The position numbers and the translations under genes are program-made. Below the pieces are notes generated by a model that saw nothing but the letters and a program-made list of their open reading frames with translations, did no database searches and had not been told where the DNA came from. A DNA stretch of 64,000 bases from Chitinivibrionales bacterium (GTDB lineage Bacteria; Fibrobacterota; Chitinivibrionia; Chitinivibrionales; WJKA01), in assembly GCA_014728295.1 (NCBI GenBank), contig WJLW01000081.1, forward strand, positions 17,295 to 81,294. The letters run 5' to 3'. Positions 2,078-57,685 of the stretch are shown piece by piece. The first letter of the stretch is position 1, and each line of letters opens with the position of its first letter.

Positions 2078-2080
2078 CAA

Positions 2081-4900: not shown

Positions 4901-5049
4901 ACCCGGTGTCGATTGACGGTGGCCGGGCACGTAATGATATAATTACCATATAATCATCCGGACTGCTGCGACGGGGCGTTGCCCTCGCGGGCCGGCGCCC
5001 TACCTGTGCAGCAATCACCTTCGTTGTATCCAGCGGGGACAACTTCTTT

Positions 5050-6375
5050 TTGAATCTCAGGCAAATTTTCTCCATCGGCAGTCAAACCCGCCTTTCGTAC
5101 GTTTACCTTTTCAAATGGGTAGTACTGGCGTTGCTGGCCGGCAGCACCGGTGCGCTGGTTGTACGGGTATTCTCGCTGCTGCTCGATTCCATATCCACCG
5201 CCATACTGCATTGGGGCGTGCCGCTTCCCCTCATACCGATATGCGGAGCGCTCGTAGCCGGGGGGATAATTTATCGGCTGCAACCTCATGCCGCGGGAGA
5301 GGGCATTCCGTCCTATATCCGCGGCATTCGTGTGCACAAGGGAGACCTGCTCTTTTCGGTCACGTTTTATAAATTCTGGGCAGCCCTGGCAACACTGGCA
5401 ACGTTTGGCAACGGGGGCATCGTCGGCCCGCTGGGCAGAACCAGTGCGGGCAGCATGGCACTGATCACCCGGGGATTGCGTCGGATTACTTCGGTATTTG
5501 ACGAAGAGGATCAGAAAACTTCGGCCATATGCGGACTTGCCGCAGCAGTGGGAACCATATTTCACACACCGATCGGCGGCGGCATTTTTGCAGTGGAAAT
5601 AATCCAGAAGGCGCGTATGGGCTATAAAGACCTCTTTCCGGCTATTTTGTCAAGTGCGACTGCCACCATCATCTGCAAGCTGTTCGGATGGGACAGTTTT
5701 TATCCAACCCATGCCGGCAGTGATTTCATGGACCACGGAATGATTGGCTGGTTGTTGCTTCTGGCGCTTGTTGCCGGACTGGTGGGTGGTGCGTATCCGA
5801 CCCTGTACAGTTGGATCACCAGAATTATTAAACGTAAAGAGGGCAACGTTTTACTCAAGGTAACTCTCGGCTCAGGGGTCGCCGGCATCATCGGATGGCT
5901 GGTGCATCCTCAGTTAATGGGAACCAGCTCGAGTTTGATTGATGCGCTCGTCCAGGGAGATTTGCATCTGATTGTCGGCAACCTGGGCATGATACAGTCG
6001 CTGGGAATAGTATTGCTCATTGCGCTGGTGGTTAAAGCAGTGTGCAATTGCATAACTGTAGGATCGGGGATGAGTGCCGGCTTTGCGGGACCGGCGGCAA
6101 TAACCGGCATGTTGCTCGGTGCGACCGCCGCTTGTTTTCTCAATGTTGAGATCGGCAGCCCAACGTATGCGGCATTTATCGCCGGCGGTTTTGCGTCCAT
6201 GCTCGCCAGCACCATGAACATACCCCTCGCTTCGGCAGTAATGGCAGTAGAGATTTTTGGATTACAGTGCAGCTTTCCGGCAGGACTGTCGGCTATTGTC
6301 GGTTTTCAGGTGACGCGCCACGGCACCATTTATGATTACGCGCTGGCGGGAGCAGGTGTGGCGATTGACGAGTAG
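5050..6375 (+). CDS. ClC family voltage-gated chloride channel/antiporter
   Basis: Multi-TM protein with ClC selectivity-type motifs GEGIPSY, GIVGPLGR, PIGGGIFAVEI and GSGMSAGFAGP. The TTG start at 5050 is uncertain. Confidence 0.8.
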   Translation: MNLRQIFSIGSQTRLSYVYLFKWVVLALLAGSTGALVVRVFSLLLDSISTAILHWGVPLPLIPICGALVAGGIIYRLQPHAAGEGIPSYIRGIRVHKGDLLFSVTFYKFWAALATLATFGNGGIVGPLGRTSAGSMALITRGLRRITSVFDEEDQKTSAICGLAAAVGTIFHTPIGGGIFAVEIIQKARMGYKDLFPAILSSATATIICKLFGWDSFYPTHAGSDFMDHGMIGWLLLLALVAGLVGGAYPTLYSWITRIIKRKEGNVLLKVTLGSGVAGIIGWLVHPQLMGTSSSLIDALVQGDLHLIVGNLGMIQSLGIVLLIALVVKAVCNCITVGSGMSAGFAGPAAITGMLLGATAACFLNVEIGSPTYAAFIAGGFASMLASTMNIPLASAVMAVEIFGLQCSFPAGLSAIVGFQVTRHGTIYDYALAGAGVAIDE

Positions 6376-6419
6376 CAGAGCGCCGGAATGGCACGTTGGC
6401 GCCCGGTTGCGCATATTCC

Positions 6420-8246
6420 CTAATTATAATAGTACTGGGATACGTTTTTTTCGATGTCCTGACGCTTCTTGTAGTCCAGGTACCAGTCAATATATATTTT
6501 CTGCGCCATATTACCGGTTATTTTCCTCTCGACGGCAGCGACCTCGGGACTCTCCCAGGGAATATCCTTGACACGTTCAACCATAACCGGGCGAACAACG
6601 AAAAAGGCGTTCGCAGTTTCGACAATATCCGACATTGCTGCCTCGGGCAGCGAAAATGCGGCTGCAACGGCCTGATTGTTGTTGCCGACGCCGGGGATGT
6701 ATGATGAGCGCGCTACCGTATCCGTCGTTGCGGAAGTTATCAGTGAATCCGCTTCGTGCAACGTTGCGAGCGTTATTTCGCCGCCAATCTTTTTTAAGGC
6801 ATCCTCCAGATACGAACGTGCTTTTGCGCGTCGAAGCGAATCACGCAGCGTTAAAAAAATAGATTCTTTAACAGTCTCAAAAGGCTGCGTCCCTTCCGGC
6901 ATTTTTCTCTTCAGCTTGAGGATATAAAAGGCATCCTCACTTTCCAGCGGATTTTCGTATACATCACCCTGATTATAGGTAAATGCAAAGAAATTCAATC
7001 CGCTGACATACCCGATTCCGGGAACCATATCGCCCTGGACAAACGGCCCGGTCGAATCAAGCTTTACATTTTCATCACCCTTCAAAGCCTCCTCGAAGCC
7101 TTTTTCAGCCACAAGGTCACGCAAGCTGTCGGCAAAATCTTCCAGACTGTCAACCGTTTCGGCGGAAGGATTTAGTTTGCGCAGTATGTGACGGGCTTTG
7201 ATGCGGGTTACCGAATCACCTTCCAGCTCCTTTTGCTCGACTTTGATAATGTGATAGCCGAACTGGGTCTTTACCGGATCTGATATTGTACCGGTATCCA
7301 TGGCAAAGGCAACCTTCTCGAACTCCTTGACCATCTGTCCGCGGCCGAACCATCCCAGATTCCCACCGTCTTTAGCCGAACCTTCGTCGTCGGACTCGAT
7401 TTCGGCCTCGTCGGCAAAAGTTGCTTCGCCATCCTGTACCCGGCTTTTTATGGCAAGCAGCTCGTTATAGAATTCCGCTTCATCAGCTTTCGTCGTCATC
7501 TTGGGAATTTTGGCATAATAGAGATCGGCCTGCTCTTCGGAATGGAACGAATCGGCATTGGCTTTGTAGTAGCTTTGCATCATGTCATCGGTGACAGCGG
7601 AAGAATCAACACTGAACGAAAACGGACTCACCTTGGCATATTCGAAAACCGCTTGTTCATTATCCAGCCGATACTGATGGGCGATTTCGGCCCGGGTGAT
7701 GAAATTGCCCGCCTCAAGCAAGTGCTGCAACTGAGCCATCGGGGCCTGCAGGCGTCGCAATTCCTGCTCCCACAATACCAGGTCCGGATTGGCCTCAAAT
7801 GATGTAGGATCGTTCAGGAATTCTTCCCATTTCAAGGTGTCGAATATGCTGTCGGTCTGGAACATTGGCGACTCAACCACGTTTTGGGGAGGATTGTTCC
7901 GGATCATGGTATAGATTTCCTGCGTAGAAGCGTTGATATTCATGTCATCAAACACTTTCTGCAACAGAATTTCGCTAACCTTTCGTTCCCAGACCTGCTC
8001 GGGGATCTGACGCCGCGTATACGGTGGAAGATCCCCGCCTGATTGAAGCCGCTGCTGTTCCTCCGTCATATTGACCATATTGTCAAATTCACGAAGTATG
8101 ATCTCCCGGCCGTTTACGGTACCAACGACCTGCTTCGGCTCCTGTGCCATCTGGTCGATGCCGCCGCCGACAAAAATTGAAATTACGAAAATAATGGCAG
8201 CCGCCAGAATGAATCCCGGCGCAATGTTGCGCATTTTGCTAATCAT
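6420..8246 (-). CDS. ppiD: PpiD-like periplasmic chaperone / parvulin peptidyl-prolyl isomerase
   Basis: N-terminal membrane anchor, SurA-N-like region, and parvulin core GGNLGWFGRGQMVKEFEKVAF...FGYHIIKV. Confidence 0.8.
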   Translation of the reverse strand: MISKMRNIAPGFILAAAIIFVISIFVGGGIDQMAQEPKQVVGTVNGREIILREFDNMVNMTEEQQRLQSGGDLPPYTRRQIPEQVWERKVSEILLQKVFDDMNINASTQEIYTMIRNNPPQNVVESPMFQTDSIFDTLKWEEFLNDPTSFEANPDLVLWEQELRRLQAPMAQLQHLLEAGNFITRAEIAHQYRLDNEQAVFEYAKVSPFSFSVDSSAVTDDMMQSYYKANADSFHSEEQADLYYAKIPKMTTKADEAEFYNELLAIKSRVQDGEATFADEAEIESDDEGSAKDGGNLGWFGRGQMVKEFEKVAFAMDTGTISDPVKTQFGYHIIKVEQKELEGDSVTRIKARHILRKLNPSAETVDSLEDFADSLRDLVAEKGFEEALKGDENVKLDSTGPFVQGDMVPGIGYVSGLNFFAFTYNQGDVYENPLESEDAFYILKLKRKMPEGTQPFETVKESIFLTLRDSLRRAKARSYLEDALKKIGGEITLATLHEADSLITSATTDTVARSSYIPGVGNNNQAVAAAFSLPEAAMSDIVETANAFFVVRPVMVERVKDIPWESPEVAAVERKITGNMAQKIYIDWYLDYKKRQDIEKNVSQYYYN

Positions 8247-8330
8247 GGTCTCTCCCTGAAGGCAATATCAATATCACTAGGTCCGCAAAAAGCGGAGACT
8301 ACAAAAAATAATAAATACAACCTGCAACAA

Positions 8331-10148
8331 TCATTTTTTCGGCTTTAAAATTGAAGCATACAGATTTTTATCGGAGAGCAGCTCCAATGCGGCTTTGAGT
8401 TGGACGTCATCGGCGAGTTTGGTGCGATACACCAGTTCGTTGTCCTGCCCGTATTCTCTTACCAGAAATGCTTCTCGGATGTATTTGCGGACTTCCTGTT
8501 CCACCTCGGCAAATTCACGTTTGCGCTCCTGCGCCAGAAGCCTCTCTATGCCCCGGCTGATTGATTCGAGCTCCTGCTTTTCCTGTTGGGTGAGTACGAT
8601 TGCCGGTTCATTGTCAATCGTATCCGCAGTATCGGGCTTTTCAATTTCAAGTCCGGCGTGCTGCTTGAAATCGTCAAAAGCAATATCCGCCATGGTCTTG
8701 TACTCGAAATCAATTGAGTCCAGAAATGCTCTGAAAGATGCATAGAGTTTATCATTGATGCTAAAACCGGTATCGATCGGAGCTTTGGCCTTTTTCAGCA
8801 TCGGGTGTTGCAGGTTTGCGAACTTAAAAAATGCGTCCCTGCCGAAGAGCGCCCGCACAATGTCATCAAACGACTCCGGCTCCACGATTGTGTCGGGAAT
8901 AATACCGCCGCCACCCAGTACGATACGTCCGTTTTTGGTGCGATATGCCGATGTGTCCTGCACAGTATCGGCGGCTTCCACAGATGTGGCCTGTGAACCT
9001 AGCGAAGCAGTGTCGATATTTTCCTGGTCGTCCTGGGCATCTCCATTGCCCCGGACATCATTTTCCGGCTTATTGATGCACCGCCCGGACGGTGTATAAT
9101 AAAAGGCCGTCGTCAATTTGATATGATGCGTTTTGTCAAGATACAGAATGCTCTGCACCGATCCCTTGCCAAAGGTCGTATCGCCCAGGACAATACCCCG
9201 GTCCCAGTCCTGGATGGCGCCGGCAACAATTTCGGAAGCGCTGGCGCTGGCCGGGTTCACCAATACGACCAGCGGCATATTTTCGGGAAAAACGGGGCTG
9301 GTTTTAACATAGAATTCTTTGTTCTGGCCGGGTGCTCTTCCTCTGGTCGAAACGACAAGTGATTTTTTTGGCAGGAATTTGGACGAAACTTCAATTGCCT
9401 GCGGCAACAAACCGCCCGGATTAAAGCGCAAGTCAAGCACCAATCCGTTGATGCCTTTTTTGACGAGAGTCTTGACCGATTTTTCGATCTCGTCCCCGGC
9501 TTCCTGCGAAAAAGTATTGAGGCGGATGTAGCCGATACTGTCGTCGAATACGCCGCTGAAAGGAACAGATTTGATTTTAATAATCTCGCGGGTGATGGTA
9601 AAATGCAGCGGTTTGGTTTCGCCTTTGCGGCGCACGGTAATGGAGACTTCGGTACCGGGTTTGCCGCGCAACTTGCCGACCGCCTCATCGAGCTTGATTC
9701 CTTTTGTTGACTTGCCTTCTATTTTGATAATCTGGTCTCCCGAACGAATACCGGCACGCGAGGCAGGCGTTCCCCCGATAGGCGTCATCACGGTCAGAAC
9801 ATTTTCACGGATGGAAATCTGTATGCCCAGACCGCCGAATTTGCCTTCGGTATGAATGCGTAGCTCTTCGAATTGTTTCTTTTCAAAGTAGCTCGTATGG
9901 GGATCAAGGATTTCGATCATTCCTTCGATAGCTTTATCGACGAGGTCTTTTGAGCTGACTTCTTCAACATAATTCTGGTGAATTTTGGTGGTAACATTGT
10001 CCAGCCGAATAATATCGGCGTAAAAATTATCGTCTTCGGCATCCGGGCGCACTTTGTCGGCCATCAAGCCGGTAATAACAACGACCAGCATGACGATTCC
10101 CAACAATGGCGTTTTGCCCAGCGGATGCTTCTTCGTCTGAGTACTCAT
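8331..10148 (-). CDS. ctp: Carboxy-terminal processing protease (S41 family) with PDZ domain
   Basis: TM anchor, PDZ (FGGLGIQI...GTPASRAGIRSGDQIIKIEG), S41 core (LRFNPGGLL, NPASASASEIVAGA, FGKGSVQS, GGGGIIPD), plus a ~190-aa C-terminal extension. Confidence 0.9.
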   Translation of the reverse strand: MSTQTKKHPLGKTPLLGIVMLVVVITGLMADKVRPDAEDDNFYADIIRLDNVTTKIHQNYVEEVSSKDLVDKAIEGMIEILDPHTSYFEKKQFEELRIHTEGKFGGLGIQISIRENVLTVMTPIGGTPASRAGIRSGDQIIKIEGKSTKGIKLDEAVGKLRGKPGTEVSITVRRKGETKPLHFTITREIIKIKSVPFSGVFDDSIGYIRLNTFSQEAGDEIEKSVKTLVKKGINGLVLDLRFNPGGLLPQAIEVSSKFLPKKSLVVSTRGRAPGQNKEFYVKTSPVFPENMPLVVLVNPASASASEIVAGAIQDWDRGIVLGDTTFGKGSVQSILYLDKTHHIKLTTAFYYTPSGRCINKPENDVRGNGDAQDDQENIDTASLGSQATSVEAADTVQDTSAYRTKNGRIVLGGGGIIPDTIVEPESFDDIVRALFGRDAFFKFANLQHPMLKKAKAPIDTGFSINDKLYASFRAFLDSIDFEYKTMADIAFDDFKQHAGLEIEKPDTADTIDNEPAIVLTQQEKQELESISRGIERLLAQERKREFAEVEQEVRKYIREAFLVREYGQDNELVYRTKLADDVQLKAALELLSDKNLYASILKPKK

Positions 10149-10169: not shown

Positions 10170-10820
10170 TCACGCATGCGCGATGCGCTTTTGTTCCAGT
10201 AAAAAGTCGAGTTTACTGATTATGTTCAAAGATAATTCATCAATGGGACGACCGCCATCCAGAAGCGTCATGCGCTGCGGATTGCTGCGCACCAGATCCT
10301 GATATCCCTGACGAACCCTCTTAAAGAAAGACCGCGAATTGCCTTCAAGACGGTCGGGCGATTTATCCATATTGTGTAATCGAGTATGTGCAATGTCAAT
10401 ATTGATGTCGAATACGAACGTATGATCGGGGGTGATACCGGCCGTGGCAAACGAGTTGCATTGCTGCACAGCTTGCAGATTCATGCCGCGTCCCCAGCCC
10501 TGATAAGCAAAAGTAGCCTCCTGAAAACGGTCGCATACGACAACCACGCCGTCTGCAAGGGCCGGCAGGATTTTTTCTTCGACATGCTGGGCGCGGGCGG
10601 CGAGGTAGAGCAATACTTCGCACCGGTCAACCATGGCATCATTGTCGGGAGACAGCAGCAGCGACCTGATCTTTTCAGCGATTCGGGTGCCCCCCGGCTC
10701 ACGCGTTGCCATGCAGGCAACACCACGGCGCTGCAACGATTCGACCGCACGCGCAACCTGAGTGCTTTTGCCGCAGCCGTCGACACCTTCAAAAGTGAGG
10801 AAAAGACCTTTTGGAATCAT
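10170..10820 (-). CDS. tmk: Thymidylate kinase
   Basis: P-loop FEGVDGCGKSTQ. I place the start at the second Met (MIPKG), whose ATG overlaps the secA stop as ATGA (10817-10820), suggesting translational coupling. Confidence 0.9.
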   Translation of the reverse strand: MIPKGLFLTFEGVDGCGKSTQVARAVESLQRRGVACMATREPGGTRIAEKIRSLLLSPDNDAMVDRCEVLLYLAARAQHVEEKILPALADGVVVVCDRFQEATFAYQGWGRGMNLQAVQQCNSFATAGITPDHTFVFDINIDIAHTRLHNMDKSPDRLEGNSRSFFKRVRQGYQDLVRSNPQRMTLLDGGRPIDELSLNIISKLDFLLEQKRIAHA

Positions 10821-13800
10821 GCAGTTGTTTTCCCGCAGCATTTTTTATACTTCTTGCCGCTGCCGCACGGACACGGATCGTTGCGTCCTACCTGCTGTGG
10901 AGCCCGCACGGGTGCAGGCTTCCCGCCGCCGGCCCGATTGGTTATCATTCGGCGTTTTCTGGCCGCAGCGGGAACCGAACCGTCCGAAGCGGGAGCGCTA
11001 CCGGGCCCGGCGAATACGTTGTAGCTGTCATGCTCGGTCTGCGCTCGGTTAAGTCCCATGCGATCCTGCTGCTCGACGACGTCGTCATAGCGAAAGATGT
11101 TCATGGTTACCTGACGGGCAATAGTGCTGCGTAATTCCGCAAATGCATTGAGCGCTTCTTTCTGGTATTCGTACAGCGGATTCTTCTGAGCATACGAGCG
11201 GAACTGCACCCCCTGCTTGAGATGGTCCATTTCGTAGAGATGATCTTTCCACAGGTTGTCAATTACCATCAGAAAGATGCTGCGCTCAAGACTCCGCATG
11301 AACAATTCGCCGCGGCTCTGTTCGCGTTCGTCGTAGGCCTTTTTTATTTCGGCGCCAATATCATCGTACAACGACTCGATAGATTTGCTGCTCACCTGCT
11401 CTTCGGGAATACTATAGATGATTCCAAAGCCCGCCTGCAGGTCTACATAAAGATCTTTGAGATGCCATTGCTCGGCATATTTGCTGTCTTCGGTATGTCT
11501 GAGCACCAGCTCTTCGAGAAAGATGGATATCTGCTCCATGATCTTGTGCTTGATGTTTTCGCCGCGCAAAATCTGTTGCCGCAAACCGTAAATCTCGGTT
11601 CGCTGCAGGTTCATGACATCATCGTACTCTTTGAGGTGCTTACGCTGATCGAAGTTACGTCCTTCAACCCGCTTTTGAGCGGAACCGATGGATCGCGATA
11701 CCAGCGGATGCGAAATGGCCTCCCCATCCTCAGCGCCCAGGCGGTCCATGATGCCGACCAGCCGTTCAGAACCGAAGATACGCATGAGATCGTCGTCGAG
11801 CGAAAGAAAAAATTTTGACGAGCCGGGATCGCCCTGGCGTCCGGCGCGACCGCGCAACTGGTTGTCAATGCGCCGGGCTTCATGACGCTCGGTGCCAATG
11901 ATGTGCAATCCGCCCAGTTCTTTGACCTTCTTTTGCTCTTCCTGTAATTCGCGGAAGAGTTTGGCGTATCGCTCGCGCCTCTCTTCACGACTGAGATCGT
12001 CGGCTTCAATCCCCTCTTTTGCAAGCTCCTGGTTAACCATTGCCTCAAAGTTGCCGCCCAGGACAATGTCGGTGCCGCGGCCGGCCATGTTGGTGGCAAT
12101 CGTTACCCCACCGATGCGCCCCGCCTGCGCCACAATGTGCGCTTCCCGGCTGTGCTGCTTGGCATTGAGTACCGAATGCTGAACGCCGACTTGCGTAAGC
12201 TTCTTGCTGAGCACTTCGGATTTCTCAATAGAGGTCGTGCCCACCAGAACCGGTCGGCCTTCTTCATTCATATGGCTGATCTCATCTGCAATGGCCCCGA
12301 CTTTTTCTTTTTGCGTCTTGTAAATTTCATCATCGTAGTCTGTGCGCGCCAGCGGACGATTAGTGGGGATAGTAACAACATCAAGTTTGTAAATGTCATG
12401 AAATTCGCCGGCCTCGGTTGCCGCCGTACCGGTCATGCCGGCAATTTTGCGATACATCTTGAAAAAATTCTGAAACGTAATCGTTGCCAGAGTCTGGTTT
12501 TCACCGGCTACCCGGACACGTTCTTTGGCCTCCAGCGCCTGATGCAGTCCTTCGCTGTAACGTCGCCCGTGCAGGATACGGCCGGTAAATTCATCAACAA
12601 TCAGAATTTGGCCGTCCTGCACGACATAATCAACATCACGCTCAAACATCGAATAGGCGCGCAGCAATTGGCTCGCCGAATGAATACGCTCCGACTTATC
12701 GGTGTATTGACGCTGGGCGTCTTCCCGCAAAAGCTGGCTCTCTTCGGGGCCGACCGGCAGGTTGTTACCCACGCGCTCGAGCATCGCATTTTTCTGATTG
12801 ACGTCTACGGTTTGAATGGATTTCACATGCTCGAACAGACGTGCGCGTTCGTCGCTGTCAAATGCCGGGCAATGCCGCAAGGCGCGGGTGGCGATCTCCT
12901 TTGCCCCGGCTTTGATTCCTTTTGCCGCATCAAGCGCCTGTTTGATCTGTTTGGCTTCTGAAGGGGCCAGCCGATGGTTGTTCTTGAGGCGTTGCGTCAA
13001 TTGCGAGCGCTCACGGGATGAAAGCGTTTTTGCAGAATCTGAAACTATGTGCACGAGCGCTTCCTGATCTTGCTTGTCAAGACGGTCATACTTATGAAAG
13101 TAGCTAAGCAGGCTTTCCCTGAGATCGGCTGACAGGTTTGTCTCGGAAACGATGCGGTACAGCTCATCTTTTTCATTGCGGGAAACATCGGCAAACGATG
13201 CAATTGCATCGGCAATTCGCGCCAGCGCGACCTGGTCCCCGGCAGTTTCGCGCCGCAGCAGTTCGCAAAGTCGCTTGGGCTCATTCAATGTGGCGCTATC
13301 GTAGCTTTTCAGGCACTCCAGTGCCTCGTTTTTGTCTTCTTTTGACCAGTCGTAGTAGATGGATACTATCTTCTTCAGTTCAACCTTATCCTGCTCTTTG
13401 AGAGAAGCATCAATTTCTATTATATGGTTGAGCCCCGAATAGTAATCAGACGACAGCTTGGCATTGCCGGCCAACTTCGCTTCGACTTCGGCCTGTACCT
13501 TCTGGATTATCTTTGCCTGTGACTGAACGATTGAGGTGATTGTTTGCTTTTCATCGGCCGAAAGCGGTTGGAGCAAGGCCACGAGCGCTTCAAGCTTTTT
13601 GATGTCAATGACGGAAAGATTGTCGCACTTTTTTATAACCTGCTTGATTACAACATCTTTCTGCTTCTGTGTCAAAGTGGGTATAGCGTTTACTTTCTCG
13701 ACCAGATCGGTGCGCTTTTCTTCGGGATAGGGGCGTACGTCTTCGTCCAGGGCGTTGACTTTATCCATATAGGGGAGGGAAGAAAACGCATTATTCTGAA

Positions 13801-15559
13801 TCAGCTCCAATAGTTTGTCGAGCTGTTTTGCGGTAAGAATCTGATTCCTTTTCAATGCATCGACCAGGGTAGTTATCTGGCGCGAATCGGAATCCGGATC
13901 TTTATTCAGAATGTCAATGATTTCATTGCGCTCGGCAAGTGTCAAGGGGATATTTTTGGCGATAATTGCTTCGAATTCTTCCCGCTTCTGCGCGATCAGC
14001 AGATCTTTGTCCTTGATTTTCTCAAACAAATCACGGTAGGCCGCACTGCTGCCTGCATTAAAAATTTTATACAATTCCACAATTTCGGTTAAACGCTTTT
14101 TGCGCAGTTCATCGCCGGGACTTGAGCCATACAGGTAAGCGTCGATGTCGCACAACTCCGTACTTTCCTGCTGTGACAGCGGCTCTGACTGTTTGACAAA
14201 ATCGGCCAGTTTCTGCTTGTGGGTGTCGTTCAGCCCGCGATTTTCATCGATGATCTTCTGGATTTTTTCAACCATGTCATAGTTCAACGGCTCGTTGCTC
14301 TCAATCGAAGCAACTAGTGATTCACGCTCCTGCGGTGTCAAAACGTCAATGATTTGTGCAAATTCGAGCAGCTTGGCCTTCTGGCCAATGGAGACTACAT
14401 CATTTTTCGTCACGGCATTGAGTGTTTCGGCCAGGTCGGGTACCACAAAAAAGTATGGGTCAGATTCGCTGATCAGCCGACGCCCCTTTTCGGTCAGCTC
14501 GGCACTGTGTCCCGATTCGTCAATCGAAAAGAAGAGCTGCTCGTCAATCTCATGCAGCTTGCGTTCGCGCAGGTACTCGGCTTCCACCGATTTCATTATT
14601 TTGCCGATACCGGGCTCTTTGAGCAGATTGAGCAATGGCGGATATTTCGGAGAGCCGCGCCGAACAGCCAGGAGCTTCAAACCGGCTTCAAAATGCTTCT
14701 CTTCGTCATCAAGCAATTTCTGAGCTTCGTCAAAGAGCTTTTTGATCAGATTTTTCTGCGCGGAGACGGCCTTTTCAACACGCGGGCGTAGCTCTTCATA
14801 TTCCTTGTTCGATTTGGTCACCGGACCCGATATAATCAGGGGCGTCCGGGCTTCATCTACCAGAATGTTGTCCACTTCGTCAATTATCGCATAATTCAAC
14901 TCGCGCTGTACGCACTGGTCGGCCGAAAAAGCCATATTGTCACGCAGGTAGTCAAAGCCGAATTCATTATTGGTACCATAGGTAATGTCGCAATTGTATG
15001 CTTCCCGCCGCTCTTCACTGCTGGGCTCGGTATTGTCCAGACAGCCCACGGTAAGGCCGAGAAAGCTGAATATTTTTCCCATCCACTCACTGTCGCGCCG
15101 GGCCAGATAGTCATTGACCGTAATGACATGCACGCCGCGTCCTTCAAGCGCGTTGAGATAGGCGGCCAGGGTTGCAACCTGGGTTTTTCCTTCACCGGTT
15201 TTCATTTCAGCTATTTTGCCCTGGTGCAAAACAACGCCGCCCATGATCTGCACATCAAAATGCGCCATAAAGGGGATCTCTTTTTTGGTATAGGGATCCT
15301 TGACCACACGCCCTTCACCCAACACCCGATGCGTCACCTCGCGCACCACAGAAAAAGCTTCGGGCAAAATATCATCAAGCGTCTCTCCCTGCGTCAATCG
15401 CTGCCGGAATTCAGCGGTTTTGTCCTGAAGCTGCTCATCGGAGAGAGTATGCATGGTCTCAGGGAAACCATTAACGCGATCAAGCACAGGATTCAAACCC
15501 TTTACATCACGATCCTGTTTTGAACCGAATATCCTGCCGACTATATTCATCAAGCTCAT
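10817..15559 (-). CDS. secA: Preprotein translocase ATPase SecA carrying a very large insertion in the preprotein-binding domain (1580 aa)
   Basis: Walker A MKTGEGKTQVATL, DEAD-like IIDEVDNILVDEARTPLIISG, conserved RDVDYVV.DG.I.IVDEFTGR...GRRYSEGLHQALEAKE, TNMAGRGTDI, and C-terminal zinc finger CPCGSGKKYKKCCG. About 565 extra residues lie between aa ~386 and ~951. Confidence 0.97.
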   Translation of the reverse strand: MSLMNIVGRIFGSKQDRDVKGLNPVLDRVNGFPETMHTLSDEQLQDKTAEFRQRLTQGETLDDILPEAFSVVREVTHRVLGEGRVVKDPYTKKEIPFMAHFDVQIMGGVVLHQGKIAEMKTGEGKTQVATLAAYLNALEGRGVHVITVNDYLARRDSEWMGKIFSFLGLTVGCLDNTEPSSEERREAYNCDITYGTNNEFGFDYLRDNMAFSADQCVQRELNYAIIDEVDNILVDEARTPLIISGPVTKSNKEYEELRPRVEKAVSAQKNLIKKLFDEAQKLLDDEEKHFEAGLKLLAVRRGSPKYPPLLNLLKEPGIGKIMKSVEAEYLRERKLHEIDEQLFFSIDESGHSAELTEKGRRLISESDPYFFVVPDLAETLNAVTKNDVVSIGQKAKLLEFAQIIDVLTPQERESLVASIESNEPLNYDMVEKIQKIIDENRGLNDTHKQKLADFVKQSEPLSQQESTELCDIDAYLYGSSPGDELRKKRLTEIVELYKIFNAGSSAAYRDLFEKIKDKDLLIAQKREEFEAIIAKNIPLTLAERNEIIDILNKDPDSDSRQITTLVDALKRNQILTAKQLDKLLELIQNNAFSSLPYMDKVNALDEDVRPYPEEKRTDLVEKVNAIPTLTQKQKDVVIKQVIKKCDNLSVIDIKKLEALVALLQPLSADEKQTITSIVQSQAKIIQKVQAEVEAKLAGNAKLSSDYYSGLNHIIEIDASLKEQDKVELKKIVSIYYDWSKEDKNEALECLKSYDSATLNEPKRLCELLRRETAGDQVALARIADAIASFADVSRNEKDELYRIVSETNLSADLRESLLSYFHKYDRLDKQDQEALVHIVSDSAKTLSSRERSQLTQRLKNNHRLAPSEAKQIKQALDAAKGIKAGAKEIATRALRHCPAFDSDERARLFEHVKSIQTVDVNQKNAMLERVGNNLPVGPEESQLLREDAQRQYTDKSERIHSASQLLRAYSMFERDVDYVVQDGQILIVDEFTGRILHGRRYSEGLHQALEAKERVRVAGENQTLATITFQNFFKMYRKIAGMTGTAATEAGEFHDIYKLDVVTIPTNRPLARTDYDDEIYKTQKEKVGAIADEISHMNEEGRPVLVGTTSIEKSEVLSKKLTQVGVQHSVLNAKQHSREAHIVAQAGRIGGVTIATNMAGRGTDIVLGGNFEAMVNQELAKEGIEADDLSREERRERYAKLFRELQEEQKKVKELGGLHIIGTERHEARRIDNQLRGRAGRQGDPGSSKFFLSLDDDLMRIFGSERLVGIMDRLGAEDGEAISHPLVSRSIGSAQKRVEGRNFDQRKHLKEYDDVMNLQRTEIYGLRQQILRGENIKHKIMEQISIFLEELVLRHTEDSKYAEQWHLKDLYVDLQAGFGIIYSIPEEQVSSKSIESLYDDIGAEIKKAYDEREQSRGELFMRSLERSIFLMVIDNLWKDHLYEMDHLKQGVQFRSYAQKNPLYEYQKEALNAFAELRSTIARQVTMNIFRYDDVVEQQDRMGLNRAQTEHDSYNVFAGPGSAPASDGSVPAAARKRRMITNRAGGGKPAPVRAPQQVGRNDPCPCGSGKKYKKCCGKTTA

Positions 15560-15564
15560 GCGTG

Positions 15565-16146
15565 CTAATCCTTTTCTATGCGGAAGTCACTGAATTCGAT
15601 ATCGATCACGCGGCTTTCGCGTAGTACGTTATTGACTTCAGCAATCAGTTCCGGGCGGAGCGTTTTAATCAAAACGTCTTCCATTTTTTTCCTGCCTAGT
15701 ACGTTTTGCACCATCACTTTCATGTCTTCCCGCTTGAAAAGAAGCTCATTGCGGGATGACGTATCGTTATAAAATACGAAAAGTGACAGGTGAACCGTCA
15801 TTTCAGCATTATCAAGCAGCTTGCAGGAAATAGTATTAAGCTCGATGTGGGGTTTTTCGGAGGATATTACGGTTGCAGCGCCGGATGCAGAAGCTGCATT
15901 CTCGGGAACTTGCATGGCGTCTGAGGTAATTTCAGCAGGTTGAGCCGCATCGGTGTCAGACGATTCTGCGGAAGGCTGATAGACTCGGGAAAGGTGTTCT
16001 GTACCGGCAGTGGGCCCGGGTGAGCCGGGCTGACTGTTATTGCGAAATACCAGATAAGCAATGCCGCCCGTCACTGCTGCGATAATGACCAGCAGCCATA
16101 TCCGTGCGGTTGTTTTTTTCTTTGCAAGCCACGCCGAATCAGTCAT
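15565..16146 (-). CDS. Single-pass membrane protein with FliL-like C-terminal domain
   Basis: N-terminal TM (IWLLVIIAAVTGGIAYLVF). The C-terminal ~90 aa follow the FliL pattern (MTVHLSLFVFYND...LRPELIAEVNNVLRESRVIDIEFSDFRIE). Its stop lies 5 nt upstream of the secA start. Confidence 0.45.
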   Translation of the reverse strand: MTDSAWLAKKKTTARIWLLVIIAAVTGGIAYLVFRNNSQPGSPGPTAGTEHLSRVYQPSAESSDTDAAQPAEITSDAMQVPENAASASGAATVISSEKPHIELNTISCKLLDNAEMTVHLSLFVFYNDTSSRNELLFKREDMKVMVQNVLGRKKMEDVLIKTLRPELIAEVNNVLRESRVIDIEFSDFRIEKD

Positions 16147-16160
16147 CGATCAGGTTTCTA

Positions 16161-16484
16161 CTACTTTGCATCCATTATCCGGCAGGCAACCGGAACGCCC
16201 CGGGAATACTTTTCAACAACAGAATCCACTTCCGCCTGACTTTGCGGCGGTATTTTCAAAAACTGCAGCCCGATCCGGTAGCCGTCGGTTCTGTCGACCG
16301 AGTAGGCAACTTTTGCGGCCAGCAAAATGTCATTCAGGCTGACCGTCACCTGCGCCCCCTTGTTCAATGCCTTGTCGTAAAGGCAACAGACACCGGTGGT
16401 ACTCAAATCAAAGAAAGTGCGATTTTCGGTATCGGAGTTGAGCTGCTCGATCCGATCGCTGCCTCGTTCGTTCATGGAAGCCAT
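16161..16484 (-). CDS. PilZ domain protein (c-di-GMP receptor)
   Basis: RxxxR motif (RGSDR) followed by D/NxSxxG (DLSTTG). I chose the start at MASMNE (16484) because AAGGAG lies 7 nt upstream; the listed ORF extends to 16535. Confidence 0.7.
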   Translation of the reverse strand: MASMNERGSDRIEQLNSDTENRTFFDLSTTGVCCLYDKALNKGAQVTVSLNDILLAAKVAYSVDRTDGYRIGLQFLKIPPQSQAEVDSVVEKYSRGVPVACRIMDAK

Positions 16485-16566
16485 ACAGAGACTCCTTGAT
16501 GTTGCCGGTGAAAAATGTATAGATTCGGGTTGCACACGCGGCCAGCACGTCCGTCAACCCGCAAAA

Positions 16567-17628
16567 TCAGGAATTGCCTTCGAATGCAAAGGGATAAACC
16601 ACTTCCGTCGGTTCGGAAATCTGACACGAACCAAACTTCCAGCGGCGTACATAGCGCAGAAGATTTTGCTCGAATTTTGAATTATTCATGGTCGATTTCA
16701 CGATGGATACGTTTGAGACGGCACCCGAGGGCAGGATGGTAAACTTGATCTTGAGGGAACCGGACAGTCCCGGATCGCGTTTGAGCCAGTTCTCGTACAC
16801 GCGTTTGATGCGGGGTTTCTGCCGGTTGACAACCTTGCCGATGCAGGCCTGGCTGGTAACCGCGGCGCCGGATTCGGACTTAACTTCGGGAGGGTTGCTG
16901 CTCATAACCACATCGCCGCCGGTTGACGCAATTCTATCGCTGCGGGCTTTGCCCAACTCCTGCTTTTGAATACCGACACCGCTGGTCCGGGTGCCGCGCT
17001 TTTTTGTCAATTCTTCGGGATCGACATTTTTCGTAGCAAAGGTTCCTTTGGATACGGAAATACCGGATAAATCGCTTACCCCGCCCGTAGCCCCCAACAG
17101 ATCTGAGATGCCCGACGATCTGCCGCCGCCGGAACCGTCGGAAGCCGTAATCGCGGCAAAAATGCCGGTGGATTGCACCTGCGATGCTACCTCCCGGCGC
17201 TTAGCTCTGCGCTGCTCGGCACTGGCTGCTTTGCGTTCCTGCTTTTCGGCAAATGATTCTTTTTCCCGATCTAACTGCGGCTTGTCCTCTTCTTCTTGCT
17301 GCCGGGTCGCTTCGGCCTCGCTTTCTGCTGTTTGAGCAGCTTCCTCCTCAACTTCCTGCGGCTTGGATTTGGGCTGGTCCAGCACCAGCCTGGCATAACG
17401 CTCCTGGATTTTGAGGATATCCTTTTCGGTAGCCTCCCGAGGAACTTCACGGGCAGACATATAGCCAAAAAAACCGCACAGCACGAGCGCCGTAACCAGC
17501 AGGATTATCAGGAATCGTTTATCGAGCCCGCCCAGCAAACGGCCGCGAAACTGGTTCGGAAAGCTCTTCAGCGCCGCCGAAGTTCCCGAAGATTTCGCAT
17601 AAAAAATACCGGTTTGCTTAACGTTCAT
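16567..17628 (-). CDS. TonB / AgmX-PglI-type C-terminal domain energy-transducer-like protein
   Basis: N-terminal TM, E/K/Q-rich charged spacer rather than a Pro-rich one, a Gly/Ser-rich segment, and a TonB-C-like end (GSLKIKFTILPSGAVSNVSIVKST...LLRYVRRWKF). The start lies 2 nt after the ExbD stop. Confidence 0.65.
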   Translation of the reverse strand: MNVKQTGIFYAKSSGTSAALKSFPNQFRGRLLGGLDKRFLIILLVTALVLCGFFGYMSAREVPREATEKDILKIQERYARLVLDQPKSKPQEVEEEAAQTAESEAEATRQQEEEDKPQLDREKESFAEKQERKAASAEQRRAKRREVASQVQSTGIFAAITASDGSGGGRSSGISDLLGATGGVSDLSGISVSKGTFATKNVDPEELTKKRGTRTSGVGIQKQELGKARSDRIASTGGDVVMSSNPPEVKSESGAAVTSQACIGKVVNRQKPRIKRVYENWLKRDPGLSGSLKIKFTILPSGAVSNVSIVKSTMNNSKFEQNLLRYVRRWKFGSCQISEPTEVVYPFAFEGNS

Positions 17629-17630
17629 GC

Positions 17631-18134
17631 TCAGTCTTTTCTGTAAACTATCAGATTCATCACCGGATAACCGGCCTGTCCGCAGGTATACATGATGCGG
17701 GTCAGCACATTGTAGGGAATCTCGACATCTCCCTGAATCGTAATTTCACCCGAAAACTCTTTGCCGAATAGCTCCGCAGATTTACGAGCCTCCCCGGCAT
17801 GTTTCTGCAGCACCTCGTACAGGCTTTGAATCATGAAATCTTTCTGTTCCGTGATCGCTTCATAATCCTGTTTATCAACTACCAGAGCATCCTCAACGGC
17901 AATCTGGTTGCGCGAGATTTTGACACTGAGCGCCTGCCCGGTGGTGCGTTCGATGGAAGATGCGGGCAATGTCAAGCCCTCGGCGGGAGTGATAAGCTGG
18001 CCCTGAGTGGAAAAACTTTTGAGCAGGAAGACAAGAATAATAGTAAACATATCCATCATAGAGGTGATATTGAGCTTGGCGTCGCCTTCGCTGCGATTGC
18101 GGCGAGCCTGTCTGCCTGCACGCGGGAGCGCCAT
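17631..18134 (-). CDS. exbD: ExbD/TolR family biopolymer transport protein
   Basis: Signature INITSMMDMFTIILVFLL TM and a periplasmic ExbD fold-like end (ITIQGDVEIPYNVLTRIMYTCGQAGY). Its start overlaps the upstream stop (TAATG at 18132-18136). Confidence 0.85.
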   Translation of the reverse strand: MALPRAGRQARRNRSEGDAKLNITSMMDMFTIILVFLLKSFSTQGQLITPAEGLTLPASSIERTTGQALSVKISRNQIAVEDALVVDKQDYEAITEQKDFMIQSLYEVLQKHAGEARKSAELFGKEFSGEITIQGDVEIPYNVLTRIMYTCGQAGYPVMNLIVYRKD

Positions 18135-19441
18135 TACTGGATTATCCCTCCTGCCAGAGATACATTGGGAAACATGGTTACTTTGCCGTTGGGATCGGCA
18201 AATCCCCGGGCGGCATCCATTACCGAAACGACAACCTGATAGGGAATTTTGTCTTCGGCCACAATTTTGACGCTTTCATGATCTTCAAAGGCCGCAATGC
18301 CGGAGAAATCATTTTTGGCATAAGTCGTATAGAGTTTGATCAAGGAGGCGTCATCCGGGATACCGGGATGCATCGAACGGATAATTTGCAATAATGCCTG
18401 CCGTTTTACATCTGCAAGTTCCTTGTTCAACTGTGCGAAATCATACTCCCGGCCATTTTTCGGAATTTCGGCATGAGTATCGGATGCTTGCGCCGGCTCA
18501 GTTGCGGTACTGTCATCAGATTTGAAATAGTGAAAGAGGTTGAAGCCCTTTTCGGTGATGACGATTCCAAGATTCAGCTTTGCCTGCTGCGCTTTTTCAG
18601 ATGCGCCGCCGCCTCCGCCGCCGAGTTGTGATTTGGGCAGCTTCAACTCGATGGCGCCGATTTTGACAAATTCAGCCGAAGTCAGCAGAAGCGGAATGAG
18701 AATAACCATTAAATTCATCATGGGGGCGATGTTGGGTTCGGTATCGACTTCCTGTTTAAGTCGCCGGGAAGACACCTTGTAATTTTTTTGCATCATGTCA
18801 AAGGGCGTCAGCACCTTTAGCACCGAAACGGCATAGCGGTCAATCTCTTGCACGGCCCGGTCGATTTTGGCACGCAGCATCGAATAGACCAGTATGCACG
18901 GCACGCTGATCATCAGCCCCATCAGGGTTGTGTTCATTGCGGTGGATATTCCCGAGGCGAGCATGGATGATTTATCAACCGCCGCTACGTTCGGCTGGGC
19001 AACCGCGGCAAAAGATAATATGAGACCGTAAATCGTTCCCATAAGTCCAAGCAGCGTTGAAATATTTCCCAGCATCAGAAGAAAATCAACCCGCTTTTCC
19101 AGAATAGGAATCATGTGCATGGTCTCTTCTTCCATTGAGGAGCGAATCAACTGAGGCGTCTTGGCCGCGCGCTGCAGCCCCGACCCGATAATGCGCGGCA
19201 GAGCCCTGCGCTTGCCCGCCAGACAGAGCTGATAGGCTTCATCCATTTTGTGCTCTTCGATGAGCTGCTTAATTTTATCAGCAAAGGACGGTGCGTCCAC
19301 ATCGGTGCGACTGCGGATGTCAAAAAAGCGATCCAGTATCAACAGCGCCGCCAGCAGCGCGATGACCGCCAGAACCCACATAAAAACGAAACCGTCCTGG
19401 CCCGGTAGAAAAGCTGTTAGAAGCTCAGTGAAAAGATTCAT
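18134..19441 (-). CDS. MotA/TolQ/ExbB proton-channel protein fused to a C-terminal ExbD-like domain
   Basis: aa 1-~225 form an ExbB core (TLLGLMGTIYGLILSFAAV, MNTTLMGL). aa ~235-435 are ExbD-like (NIAPMMNLMVILIPLLL ... KIVAEDKIPYQVVVSVMDAA) and include a GGGGGG linker. Confidence 0.8.
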   Translation of the reverse strand: MNLFTELLTAFLPGQDGFVFMWVLAVIALLAALLILDRFFDIRSRTDVDAPSFADKIKQLIEEHKMDEAYQLCLAGKRRALPRIIGSGLQRAAKTPQLIRSSMEEETMHMIPILEKRVDFLLMLGNISTLLGLMGTIYGLILSFAAVAQPNVAAVDKSSMLASGISTAMNTTLMGLMISVPCILVYSMLRAKIDRAVQEIDRYAVSVLKVLTPFDMMQKNYKVSSRRLKQEVDTEPNIAPMMNLMVILIPLLLTSAEFVKIGAIELKLPKSQLGGGGGGASEKAQQAKLNLGIVITEKGFNLFHYFKSDDSTATEPAQASDTHAEIPKNGREYDFAQLNKELADVKRQALLQIIRSMHPGIPDDASLIKLYTTYAKNDFSGIAAFEDHESVKIVAEDKIPYQVVVSVMDAARGFADPNGKVTMFPNVSLAGGIIQ

Positions 19442-19447
19442 ACAAGA

Positions 19448-20215
19448 TCAGACATTGATTTCTTTGATCAACTTGTTGTCGGTAAATATCTTGATGTTAT
19501 TGTGTGTAACATGTACACCGACGCCCTCTTTGAGCTGTGCGGCGCTAATGTGATATTTGTGCGTTTTGTAGGAACGCTCGACCAGGGTATTGACCAGTCG
19601 CAAACTGTATTCGTCAATCTCATCAATGATCTTCTGGGTTTTGGCACGAAAAAGCGCATAGAGAATGATCGAGGGGATAGCAACCAGCAGCCCGGTAAAG
19701 GTCGTGTTCATAGCGGCGGCAATACCCGAAGCCAGCAGGGTTGATTTTTCGGCAGCGTCGATACCCGGCTTTCCAACGGCGGCAAAGGAGAGTATCAATC
19801 CATAAATCGTTCCCATCAGCCCCAGCAGTGTTGCAACATTTCCGATAGTGGCAAGGTAGTTGGTACGCTTTTCCAGATCGGGAATGACTTTCAGCATCGC
19901 TTCGTCAATGGAATTGCGTATGCGATCCGCGCCGGATTTCGCTTCGGCCAGTCCGGCGTTAACCACGGTAGCGATGACCATTTTGCCGGCCTTTTTGCAC
20001 ATTTGTTTCGCACCGTCGATATCATCGCGCTCGATTTTGGTAAGGATCTCCTTCATAAAAAGTTCCGTTTTATATCCGGCCCTGCTCATCAGAAAGACGA
20101 AGCGCTCGATTGCAATGGCTACACAGAAAATTCCGACGACCAGCAGAACCCACATAAATACATAGCCCGGCTCCGATGGACTGAACGATACGAAAAACTT
20201 GGCAAAGAAATTCAT
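19448..20215 (-). CDS. exbB: MotA/TolQ/ExbB proton-channel family protein
   Basis: Three-TM ExbB core, with the TLLGLMGTIYGLILSFAAV segment identical to the downstream paralog. AAGGAG RBS upstream of the ATG. Confidence 0.88.
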   Translation of the reverse strand: MNFFAKFFVSFSPSEPGYVFMWVLLVVGIFCVAIAIERFVFLMSRAGYKTELFMKEILTKIERDDIDGAKQMCKKAGKMVIATVVNAGLAEAKSGADRIRNSIDEAMLKVIPDLEKRTNYLATIGNVATLLGLMGTIYGLILSFAAVGKPGIDAAEKSTLLASGIAAAMNTTFTGLLVAIPSIILYALFRAKTQKIIDEIDEYSLRLVNTLVERSYKTHKYHISAAQLKEGVGVHVTHNNIKIFTDNKLIKEINV

Positions 20216-29203: not shown

Positions 29204-29625
29204 AACAGCTTGTCCCCACTTAGTACAAGGTAAAGCAGCTTCATTGCCCTGACCATCATATATGTCAAGGCACAGGCGGCGCCGAATTGCAGAATACGCA
29301 GCACGCTGGTTATTTGCTTGAAGTATTTCATGAGCATAAATTGGATTGCCTGTTAAAAATACACAAATTTCGCATCCACAATTGCGTCAGGCAAGCATGA
29401 TGGCTTGCCTGGTAGAATGGCTCGATTAGGCGCTGCACCCCAGCACAACGATTGAGGGAAAAAACGATAAGCAAATTAGGCGAATACACAAATGATTTTC
29501 GCCAATAAACGGTGGAACGCTCCCCGAATCCCAGACCGAATTTGCGAAAACTTATTTTAGCCTGTACTAGTACTGTAATTCGACTTTCATTTTTTAACTC
29601 CACACTTTGGAGAAAGGAGCTTCGC

Positions 29626-38400: not shown

Positions 38401-39187
38401 TGGCACGATAATATTGGTCTTCGGCAGTCGTTTTGTTCTTGGGAATTGCTTTGTCGTAAGCATCCGCCGCCTGCTTGTAATCACCTTTTTCATAATAGGC
38501 CCGCGCTAACGCAAGCTGCGCTTCGGAAAGGATCGGCTTTTTCTTGAGTGCTTCTTTGAGATACTGGATAGCGGCGGACGGGTCACCGGCTTCCGCGTTG
38601 GCCTTTCCCAGCATGAATGCAATCTCGCCGTCGGGTTTTTTATCGTATGATTTCTTGAGAAGTGGAATTGCCTTCTGGTATTCTTTTTGTTCGTAATAGA
38701 TGTTGCCGAGTGCTTTGTTTGCAACAGCATTTGTCGGATCGGATTGTATAACCTTTTCGAGCGCCTTCTTGGCCTCGCCAGGCTTTCCCTGCTTGATGCA
38801 GGCTTTTCCATACTCCCAACTGGCTTCGGCCGTAAAGTTGATATCCAGAGCTTTTTTGGCCATGGTTTCTGCGCTGGAATATTGCTCCAGTTTATTGTAA
38901 ATCCGTGCTGCGCCGAAGAAAGATCCGTAATCTTTGGGAAAGCTGCGGGAAGAGACCAGGTAACATGCAAGAGCCTTCTCTGTGAGATCGAGTTCTTCAT
39001 TGGCTTTGGCGACTTTGACCCATTCGTCGGCAGTACGCTTGGTTGGCGGCAAATTGCTGTCGGCATGCTCAATCGCTTCTTTGTATTTTTTATTCTTGAT
39101 CAGCTTGTCCAATGCCTCGTCGGCATAGATAAGCAGTGAAGCGGTTAAAACCATTGTAACGGAAAGGTGCAAAAGGTGCCTCGGCAT
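35468..39187 (-). CDS. Giant TPR-repeat protein (1239 aa) with N-terminal signal/anchor; paralog of 29626-34053
   Basis: Hydrophobic N-terminus (LLHLSVTMVLTASLLIYA), continuous TPR repeats, colinear with the other TPR giant, and a near-identical C-terminal tail (LDPNNEEILKEYNKAFN). Confidence 0.85.
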   Translation of the reverse strand: MPRHLLHLSVTMVLTASLLIYADEALDKLIKNKKYKEAIEHADSNLPPTKRTADEWVKVAKANEELDLTEKALACYLVSSRSFPKDYGSFFGAARIYNKLEQYSSAETMAKKALDINFTAEASWEYGKACIKQGKPGEAKKALEKVIQSDPTNAVANKALGNIYYEQKEYQKAIPLLKKSYDKKPDGEIAFMLGKANAEAGDPSAAIQYLKEALKKKPILSEAQLALARAYYEKGDYKQAADAYDKAIPKNKTTAEDQYYRAISKEKSGDIPGAVAGYKTAIKQFGASKQEEALLARTFVGRQQLKGKEYQQALGHFKFVVNADSKARTVKDIYFLMADAQVGLKQYKSAVSSLEKAISMDTKNVEAYARLADLYKKTGQGQKAKETYEKMISLSPNDPNVYLILGQYNFKSKQYAKAKEQFVKSNSLKKSAAALEGIALASAQLNQWETAKDAARSAIDADGNLVDAREVLYQALLKEKNYQSAAGQLENLVKKNSSNKTYLEDLALCYEKTGKKDKLANADKKIISLDTKNVEARMRYGAYLIDNNKPKEALAIYKQLASLAPGNKEVFQNLYQLSMKTGDKTSALTYVNKYLKLNPKDAVGFRDKGDLLYEKKQLDGALAAYRQALKLDPKISGFYQRYAEIVIAKGQHDEAIRALKGKIKSGSATVEDYTTLGTIYQKKKQYQQALDNYQNALKLDPQKLDVLTSLGECQAALNQLNEAIITYEQVIMMKPKAVDELKALGKLYERQKNTAQAIKTYKKYLDKKSADNAVAKKVGMLAFSKKEYKDAIKYLSMIKGKEASGFLVQLNLATSYFETKEYKKAIPLLIALRKRNPKLATLKEILLMLAKGYEAEKQNVSAAKTYAAYTSLRGVVDPEASYKVAFLQEESNPSGAQTVYQKNIARFPKDYRNYLQLGLMYAKNKSTLSKSITLFKKITAMADSIPVIWQNLAEVYGKLGKADEELKAYKNFVKKEPQNPEANKRIGIILTKKRQFKEGLIYLETASTLAPKDISIMLALSKGYEGTRRPNEAISVLEKAKEQALKNEQGKKYIAELRKNLYRLYAQVGKDKEAKKEVEALLKLDPNDLETRMVYAKMLFSERKYDDAANEVENIMAMNPDLEVLMLLGKIRTAQKKYEEALGVYDEIIAMDNYVPALYEKAELFREYGKQLGKSPKWAETFYKRALRTDPNYGLAYLGLAKLQKLWKREAEYEQNLKKAKELDPNNEEILKEYNKAFN

Positions 39188-57649: not shown

Positions 57650-57685
57650 TCTGGCATAATGCCCAGTAATGAAAGGATAGAATCC

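Follow-up and report, generated by a model that had tools for sequence, protein, structure and literature searches.

A large helical repeat array within the preprotein cross-linking domain of SecA in an uncultivated member of the Fibrobacterota

Two conserved signature inserts have been described in SecA, one of 50 amino acids (aa) in the Thermotogales and Aquificales and one of 76 aa in the Thermales (Khadka and Gupta 2019, PMC7023208). Both were called 'large' and both lie in a surface-exposed region of the ATPase domain, the 50-aa insert being mapped to the first nucleotide-binding domain (NBD1) (PMC7023208). They are thought to add interactions without disturbing the motor. Here we analyse a SecA protein encoded in a 64,000-nucleotide stretch of DNA (hereafter the window) from a Chitinivibrionales bacterium (assembly GCA_014728295.1, contig WJLW01000081.1, positions 17,295 to 81,294), which carries an insert of another kind. 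Like the published inserts, it is a discrete, in-frame and lineage-restricted block in a conserved SecA. However, the published inserts are of 50-76 aa, non-repetitive, located in the ATPase domain and conserved across whole orders, whereas the insert in the window is of 547 aa, consists of about 30 tandem units, is found in one lineage and has a different position, in the preprotein cross-linking domain (PPXD), between aa 390 and 938. Its size is about sevenfold that of the SecA inserts which our literature search turned up, and this search retrieved no account of either a repeat array or an insertion hundreds of residues long in the SecA PPXD.

A second comparison is with the TPR, HEAT, Sel1 and PPR repeats and with tandem three-helix bundles. 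Such arrays are typically elongated binding scaffolds that grow by tandem duplication and, like the insert, they consist of numerous short, amphipathic helices with short connecting loops, in which only cap and core positions are conserved. Their units however are of 34-42 aa with two helices, whereas those of the insert are of 18 aa with one helix each. Membership in these families was rejected on the basis of this period and because no Pfam repeat family was matched even at E <= 10. The L-T/S-x-x-Q/E motif of the insert also bears what we take to be a superficial likeness, of use as a lead only, to the LTXXQ motif of CpxP/Spy, a family of periplasmic chaperones. Membership was rejected here as well: there was no Pfam match at E <= 10, and the insert is cytoplasmic and differs in architecture.

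A lineage-specific in-frame insert in SecA

The protein is unambiguously a SecA. The full set of SecA Pfam domains was detected, namely SecA_DEAD, P-loop_SecA, SecA_SW, SecA_PP_bind and SEC-C (PF07517, E = 4e-123; PF21090, 4e-91; PF07516, 4e-58; PF01043, 3e-25; PF02810, 2e-9). SecA chains of the PDB matched at E ~1e-235, but in two pieces: E. coli SecA aligned to aa 1-280 and 958-1485 of the query, with no match between. The gene and its parts are laid out in the window as follows.

10817..15559, minus strand: secA coding sequence, an open reading frame (ORF) of 4743 nt encoding 1580 aa
14390..15559, minus strand: N-terminal native SecA, aa 1-390, comprising NBD1 and the first part of the PPXD (from Pfam, the PDB match and the alignment)
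12749..14389, minus strand: insert proper, aa 391-937, 547 aa, 1641 nt, in frame (from the alignment, anchor spacing and codon usage)
10817..12748, minus strand: C-terminal native SecA, aa 938-1580, comprising the rest of the PPXD (DVDYVV...) and the second nucleotide-binding domain (NBD2) onward

The N-terminal part contains Walker A (MKTGEGKT), DEVD and a helical PPXD expansion typical of the clade (aa ~262-340), while the C-terminal part also holds the scaffold and wing domains, the two-helix finger and the C-terminal zinc finger CPCGSGKKYKKCCG. TNMAGRGTDI and GRAGRQGDPG are likewise kept in the translation, the arginine-finger region is present, and most SecA motifs are invariant across the alignment with the closest relatives. 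The two-helix-finger segment reads RSYAQKNP, versus RAFGQKNP in most relatives. Pfam domains, translation and alignment thus bear out the statement of the initial annotation, which was made from the sequence alone, that motor motifs and C-terminal zinc finger are all intact.

A database search placed 119 proteins closest to the window SecA, every one of them a SecA with 67-71% identity to it over the regions in common. Those that are named come from metagenome-assembled genomes (MAGs) of Chitinivibrionales, Chitinispirillales or Fibrobacter-like bacteria and from Chitinispirillum alkaliphilum. Their lengths range from 1011 to 1052 aa (median 1030), so that the 1580-aa protein is indeed of unusual length, as first noted, and the insert is present in none of them (0/119). 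Any sister SecA with a homologous insert would have headed this list. With all 119 nearest relatives lacking the insert and the inserts retrieved by our literature search being of 50 and 76 aa, this is not a known, widespread variant of SecA.

In the relatives, the sequence ...FFVVPDLAEELGRIDxDxSLS runs directly into PEEKSxKREEAHRxYAERSERIHS..., whereas one uninterrupted extra block separates these segments in the window SecA. Two conserved anchors, the D of VPDL and RIH, were used to measure this spacing: it is exactly 36 aa for 114 of 115 relatives and 28 aa for the remaining one, but 583 aa for the window SecA, which defines the insert as aa 391-937, that is 547 aa; by alignment its ends are uncertain by one or two residues. 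The native spacing of 36 aa equals 2 x 18, and the loop-plus-helix is strictly constrained in length save in the window (SecA aa ~375-411; relatives P0002-P0120). The block between aa ~386 and ~952 reported in the initial annotation is therefore real and, from alignment and anchors, lies within the PPXD as proposed, but its size of ~565 aa was an overestimate: that estimate was based on E. coli SecA, while the clade already has ~24 extra residues in this loop and other expansions besides.

The segment that contains the insertion site (aa 366-957 of the window SecA) is equivalent to residues ~285-305 of E. coli SecA, in the loop ahead of the helix that runs into the DVDY(326) strand of the PPXD. 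This mapping comes from the PDB alignment, with chain 6s0k and Tyr326 serving as checks on the numbering offset. Compared with E. coli, the whole clade has ~24 additional residues in the site loop, an ~80-aa helical PPXD expansion and a 16-aa NBD1 insertion. The PPXD expansion (aa ~262-340, window 14540-14776) and the NBD1 insertion EGRVVKDPYTKKEIPF (aa 82-97, window 15268-15315) are both common to all Chitinivibrionia-type relatives, lacking in E. coli SecA and separate from the 547-aa insert.

The insert has a mass of 62 kDa; it is mildly acidic (isoelectric point 5.55) and hydrophilic (grand average of hydropathy -0.51), with no long hydrophobic stretch. Both junctions are in frame and all 547 codons are open. 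The GC content at third codon positions (GC3) is native, at 0.578 compared to a mean of 0.579 for the long ORFs of the window, and so is codon usage, with a score similar to the codon adaptation index of 0.768 versus 0.741 +/- 0.021. Total GC is lower in the insert, owing to second codon positions and hence to amino-acid composition. No DNA tandem repeat was found in the insert, just a few short direct repeats of 15-29 nt, which makes a repeat-driven misassembly unlikely. All together, these results show a genuine, lineage-specific, in-frame insert in the secA gene of an uncultivated Chitinivibrionia-like member of the Fibrobacterota, apparently unique to this SecA.

Period, units and secondary structure of the array

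The mean BLOSUM62 autocorrelation of the insert has maxima at offsets of 18, 36, 54, 72, 90 and 108 aa (z = 7.5, 5.3, 6.5, 5.3, 5.2 and 4.1, respectively). As these maxima fall at multiples of 18, the repeat unit is of 18 residues. The initial annotation had described a motif of ~15 aa, L(S/T)xxE(K/R)xxLxxI(V/I). A regular expression for this motif matched nine times in the insert, compared to 0.2 +/- 0.5 times in shuffles and never in the other 1032 residues of SecA, but such a motif is post hoc and pattern-free tests were therefore added. The top 20 ungapped self-diagonal scores sum to 863 for the insert, versus 561 +/- 22 (maximum 617) for shuffles and 530 for an equally long SecA control. 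Self-diagonal and autocorrelation tests thus both beat the shuffles, giving the repeat the statistical support that the first description called for; the motif is truly repeated, but its period is 18 and not ~15 aa.

A profile derived from the insert detects 12 strong units, starting at aa 405, 519, 537, 555, 573, 627, 664, 790, 825, 844, 898 and 916. 'At least 12 copies', as first counted, hence holds for the strong copies, while the true count is about 30 units in register. Indeed, a layout in steps of 18 from aa 387 to 951 needs just four register shifts (+6, +1, -1 and +1).

12707..14401, minus strand: full array in register, aa 387-951, 31 units of 18 aa, the two boundary units being half native (from the periodicity and register tables)

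The unit consensus is x-P-L-S-x-x-E-K-x-x-L-x-x-I-V-x-x-N, in which an L-S/T-x-x-E-K helix start is followed by hydrophobic residues at positions 11, 14 and 15. The most constrained positions are these.

Unit position 3: hydrophobic in 84%
Unit position 4: S, T or D in 21/31 units
Unit position 7: E, Q or D in 20/31 units
Unit position 8: K or R in 16/31 units
Unit position 11: hydrophobic in 87%
Unit position 15: hydrophobic in 81%

Pairwise identity between units averages just 13%, and the repeat signal is accordingly confined to a few structural positions. BLAST comparison of the insert with itself returned the diagonal only. The best long self-matches cover four to five units (for example aa 405-472 versus 519-586), which suggests that the array may have grown by block duplications.

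The motif, while real, is largely a generic helix-start signature, a capping box after a hydrophobic residue. Four further, unrelated ORFs of the window contain one copy each, scoring 12-24 bits with the insert profile, for example KTLSSQQKNELVAAIGKL and IVLTQQEKQELESISRGI (54079-55647, plus strand, aa 209; 42729-44042, minus strand, aa 213; 8331-10148, minus strand, aa 517; 48361-49557, minus strand, aa 180). As a lone helix cap, the motif is frequent in this proteome.

AlphaFold2 (AF2) models were used for secondary structure alone. A model of aa 224-1020 made with no alignment (predicted local distance difference test, pLDDT, 41.5) shows about 30 short helices connected by loops of 4-6 residues, followed by the native strands of the PPXD. 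A six-unit model (aa 519-626), made with a five-row alignment taken from other repeat blocks, reached a pLDDT of 57, with 64-72 over the first four units, and contains one helix of 12-13 residues per 18-aa unit. The helical nature of the insert, predicted at the outset, thus stands, and its secondary structure and periodicity are solid. The autocorrelation at 54 aa is slightly above that at 36 aa, which hints at three-helix modules, and weak Foldseek matches to 58-aa three-helix bundles provide a further hint only. In tertiary structure, the units might form a solenoid or else a series of small helical bundles.

Age, origin and relatives of the array

Units that share an amino acid share its codon in 33.9% of cases, whereas codon usage alone would give 36.7%. 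This saturation of synonymous sites between units shows that the duplications are old. Together with the native codon usage, this saturation marks the array as an old feature and not an assembly artefact. The retention of cap and core positions at saturated synonymous divergence points to purifying selection acting on the fold, and not to recent slippage.

The insertion site itself may tell how the array began. In insert-free relatives, the native site has the consensus E-S-L-S-P-E-E-K-A-E-K-R-E-E-A-H-R-E, which agrees with unit positions 3, 4, 7, 8 and 13. Moreover, native residues complete both the first unit (387 DVVS/IGQKAKLLEFAQII) and the last unit (934 LPVG/PEESQLLREDAQRQ; slashes mark the junctions). 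As both boundary units are natively completed, the array can be read as a series of whole units placed between positions 4 and 5 of one native unit. When the 18 phases of the insert profile were scored around the site, the best phase was that of the array in 53 of 115 relatives, versus a null expectation of 1/18; the relatives are not independent, however, so this agreement counts as roughly one observation (p ~0.06).

These observations are consistent with an ancient tandem amplification of an 18-residue (54-nt) unit, an origin that we consider fairly well supported. The likely seed would be the native x-S-L-S-P-E-E-K... helix start, which occupies exactly this site in insert-free relatives; the units would later have diverged while selection held the helix cap and core positions. 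Amplification in situ is the preferred origin, plausible but not proven.

We also considered the native site as the best match to the repeat profile in insert-free SecA proteins. This was rejected: its median rank is 23 and it comes first in one of the 119 relatives. A native segment of the variable region of NBD2 (DDLTLEEKRQRYAKLYKQ, aa ~640, in many relatives) outscores the segment at the insertion site, and L-T/S-x-E-E-K helix starts recur inside SecA itself.

Homologues of the insert were searched in several ways. An exhaustive phmmer search of 1.84 billion representative proteins gave no credible homologue and a single match, P0121 (E 1e-20). We rejected it as a false positive: P0121 is a D/G-rich RTX/cadherin-like protein of 6865 aa, in which 17 stretches aligned at 28% identity, and its ~20 near-identical repeats multiply a ~5-bit chance match 17 times. 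The case calls for caution in searches that hit repeat-rich targets. A word-indexed search of a 5.8-billion-cluster index with the insert alone returned no match, but this negative is weak, as the protein's own entry (P0001) was also missed; P0001 is present in that database, so that negatives of a word index are unreliable for a low-complexity helical query. Nothing was found with a profile of ten three-unit segments against the protein index, nor by peptide-pattern scans of genome and metagenome contigs. A look-up of the exact protein in the contig index gave no entry. Searches of NCBIfam and of PDB sequences with the insert gave noise only.

The only curated family matched above threshold is DUF3106 (PF11304), with 43.4 bits on the whole SecA and 55.2 bits (E 1.1e-14, in three stretches) on the insert alone, exceeding the gathering threshold of 24.3 bits.

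12836..13138, minus strand: best DUF3106 match, about aa 808-908, covering profile positions 3-102 of 104

This total is a sum of weak periodic matches: separate segments of ~100 aa score 15.4-20.3 bits or nothing, that is below threshold. The likeness resides in the periodic L-S-P-E-E-R/K ... L helix-start motif in an all-helical context; it is one of profile only and leaves some of the 547 aa uncovered. The members of DUF3106 are small, stand-alone and mostly proteobacterial proteins, and are not known as SecA inserts. A literature search for DUF3106 function found nothing relevant, and since the family has no known function, the resemblance gives no mechanistic explanation.

Proposed role, alternatives and significance

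The order of genes around secA is ExbB, ExbB/ExbD, ExbD, TonB, PilZ, FliL-like, SecA, thymidylate kinase, S41/PDZ protease and SurA-like peptidyl-prolyl isomerase (PPIase). The same neighbours occur in the same order around the 1031-aa SecA of another Chitinivibrionales MAG (GCA_014728215.1). In the 64 kb of the genome from which this assignment is drawn, secA thus occupies the orthologous housekeeping locus and is not an accessory SecA2 copy. With its motor intact and its gene at this locus, the 1580-aa protein most likely functions as a SecA.

Helical tandem repeats are typically binding scaffolds. At a probability of roughly 0.6, we favour a single explanation in which a genuine insert, amplified in situ into an array, forms a folded helical arm on the PPXD and adds a protein-binding surface to SecA. 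On weaker grounds, the units may pack into an independently folded, all-alpha repeat appendage of ~62 kDa. The PPXD swings by large angles as the SecA clamp opens and closes (PMC7503281; PMC9360617). Projecting from the surface loop of the PPXD bulb (E. coli ~285-305), the appendage would swing with it and would not disable the motor, the whole being a normal SecA motor with a repeat-protein arm on its substrate-binding domain. Its extra surface might hold or recruit preproteins, as a built-in holdase or antenna, or dock a lineage-specific partner. From the location only, such a substrate- or partner-docking role, already put forward in the initial annotation, is a reasonable inference. Rather unlikely, in our view, is the full claim that a folded 62-kDa domain of ~30 units was born de novo in SecA, through multiplication of one native 18-residue helix start, and is now a substrate-holding or partner-docking arm on the clamp domain that alters the recognition or delivery of secretory proteins in this lineage, for instance as an integrated holdase or tether.

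Several points weigh against the explanation that we favour. The insert is known from one contig only, which is absent from the collections scanned, and no homologues of it were found in the searches above. The native site is just among the top ~2% of SecA positions in its match to the repeat profile, being outscored by other native helix starts. As to tertiary structure, the pLDDT is 41 for aa 224-1020 and only 57 for six units, and Foldseek found no match below E = 1 in the PDB. Any functional role is purely inferred, and the open frame need not reflect a function of the insert, since the essential downstream half of SecA enforces it.

The main rival reading is a tolerated passenger: a surface loop that permits growth would have accepted a repeat expansion at little or no cost, the array would have no specific function beyond folding harmlessly, and it would persist only because in-frame deletions have not removed it yet. 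The insert is a singleton, without even one extra unit at the site in any of the 119 relatives and without a homologue in protein or contig searches; its motif is a generic helix start found singly in other proteins, and the essential C-terminal half would keep the frame open regardless. Yet synonymous sites are saturated while positions 3, 4, 7, 8, 11 and 15 are conserved, a signature of long-term purifying selection, and a 62-kDa load on an essential and usually abundant protein, outlasting the DNA-level repeats, speaks against pure neutrality. We thus hold a mere passenger to be a serious but less probable reading, with appreciably less than an even chance.

The DUF3106 match (55.2 versus 24.3 bits, E 1.1e-14, nearly the entire profile at positions 3-102 of 104) raises the question of whether a helical-repeat domain of this type was recombined into secA from another gene. 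This seems improbable to us: single segments score 15-20 bits, below the cut-off, and only part of the 547 aa is DUF3106-like; the 1.84 billion representatives contain no match bar the spurious RTX-like giant; codon usage is fully native; and the array is in phase with native SecA residues, which complete it at both ends. An artefact of assembly or gene calling, such as a chimeric join or a repeat-induced misassembly, is suggested by the single contig and by the absence of the exact protein from the contig index, but it is very improbable given the in-frame junctions, the 547 open codons with host-like codon usage and GC3, the absence of DNA-level repeats able to mislead an assembler, flanks that are collinear with the relatives to the residue, and a periodic protein pattern unbroken across the block. 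Finally, although a large discrete block in a conserved essential gene is a typical intein setting, an intein, intron or mobile element removed before mature SecA works can practically be dismissed, as Pfam gave no match to a Hint, LAGLIDADG or HNH domain with a cut-off as loose as E <= 10 and none to a transposase, the insert has no C-terminal His-Asn and is followed by Pro instead of Cys/Ser/Thr (...NNLPVG/PEES), the composition is helical and repetitive, and neither an Rfam family nor terminal inverted repeats are present.

Envelope-biogenesis genes surround secA on both sides (window 77-10148 and 15565-20215). At its 3' side, the genes for the thymidylate kinase (tmk), the S41/PDZ protease and the SurA-like PPIase are followed by Omp85/POTRA and TamB-like genes; the 5' side holds the FliL-like gene, PilZ, TonB and ExbD/ExbB. 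The longest tmk ORF begins at 10841 and overlaps secA by 25 nt (window 10817-10841). An internal ATG (Met8, 10820) would reduce this to a 4-nt overlap of the ATGA type, as for secA and tmk in GCA_014728215.1 (locus L001, 9093/9096), and is probably the true start. Long repeat proteins abound in the region, with TPR proteins of 1513 aa (29512-34053, plus strand) and 1239 aa (35468-39187, minus strand); a CarboxypepD_reg/PEGA-domain protein of 1522 aa is encoded at 57659-62227.

SecA is among the most conserved and best-studied bacterial machines, and the PPXD is its substrate-gripping domain. A 62-kDa array in this domain, which selection has apparently maintained, illustrates the size of the load that the moving clamp tolerates and would rank with the clearer examples of an essential enzyme in which a sizeable repeat domain has evolved in place. 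Were it a passenger only, the array would still provide a natural map of a permissive site for engineering SecA fusions. Enzymes that degrade polysaccharides are known to be heavily secreted by the Fibrobacterota; should the array bind substrates or partners, it would represent a new accessory module of the Sec pathway in this phylum.

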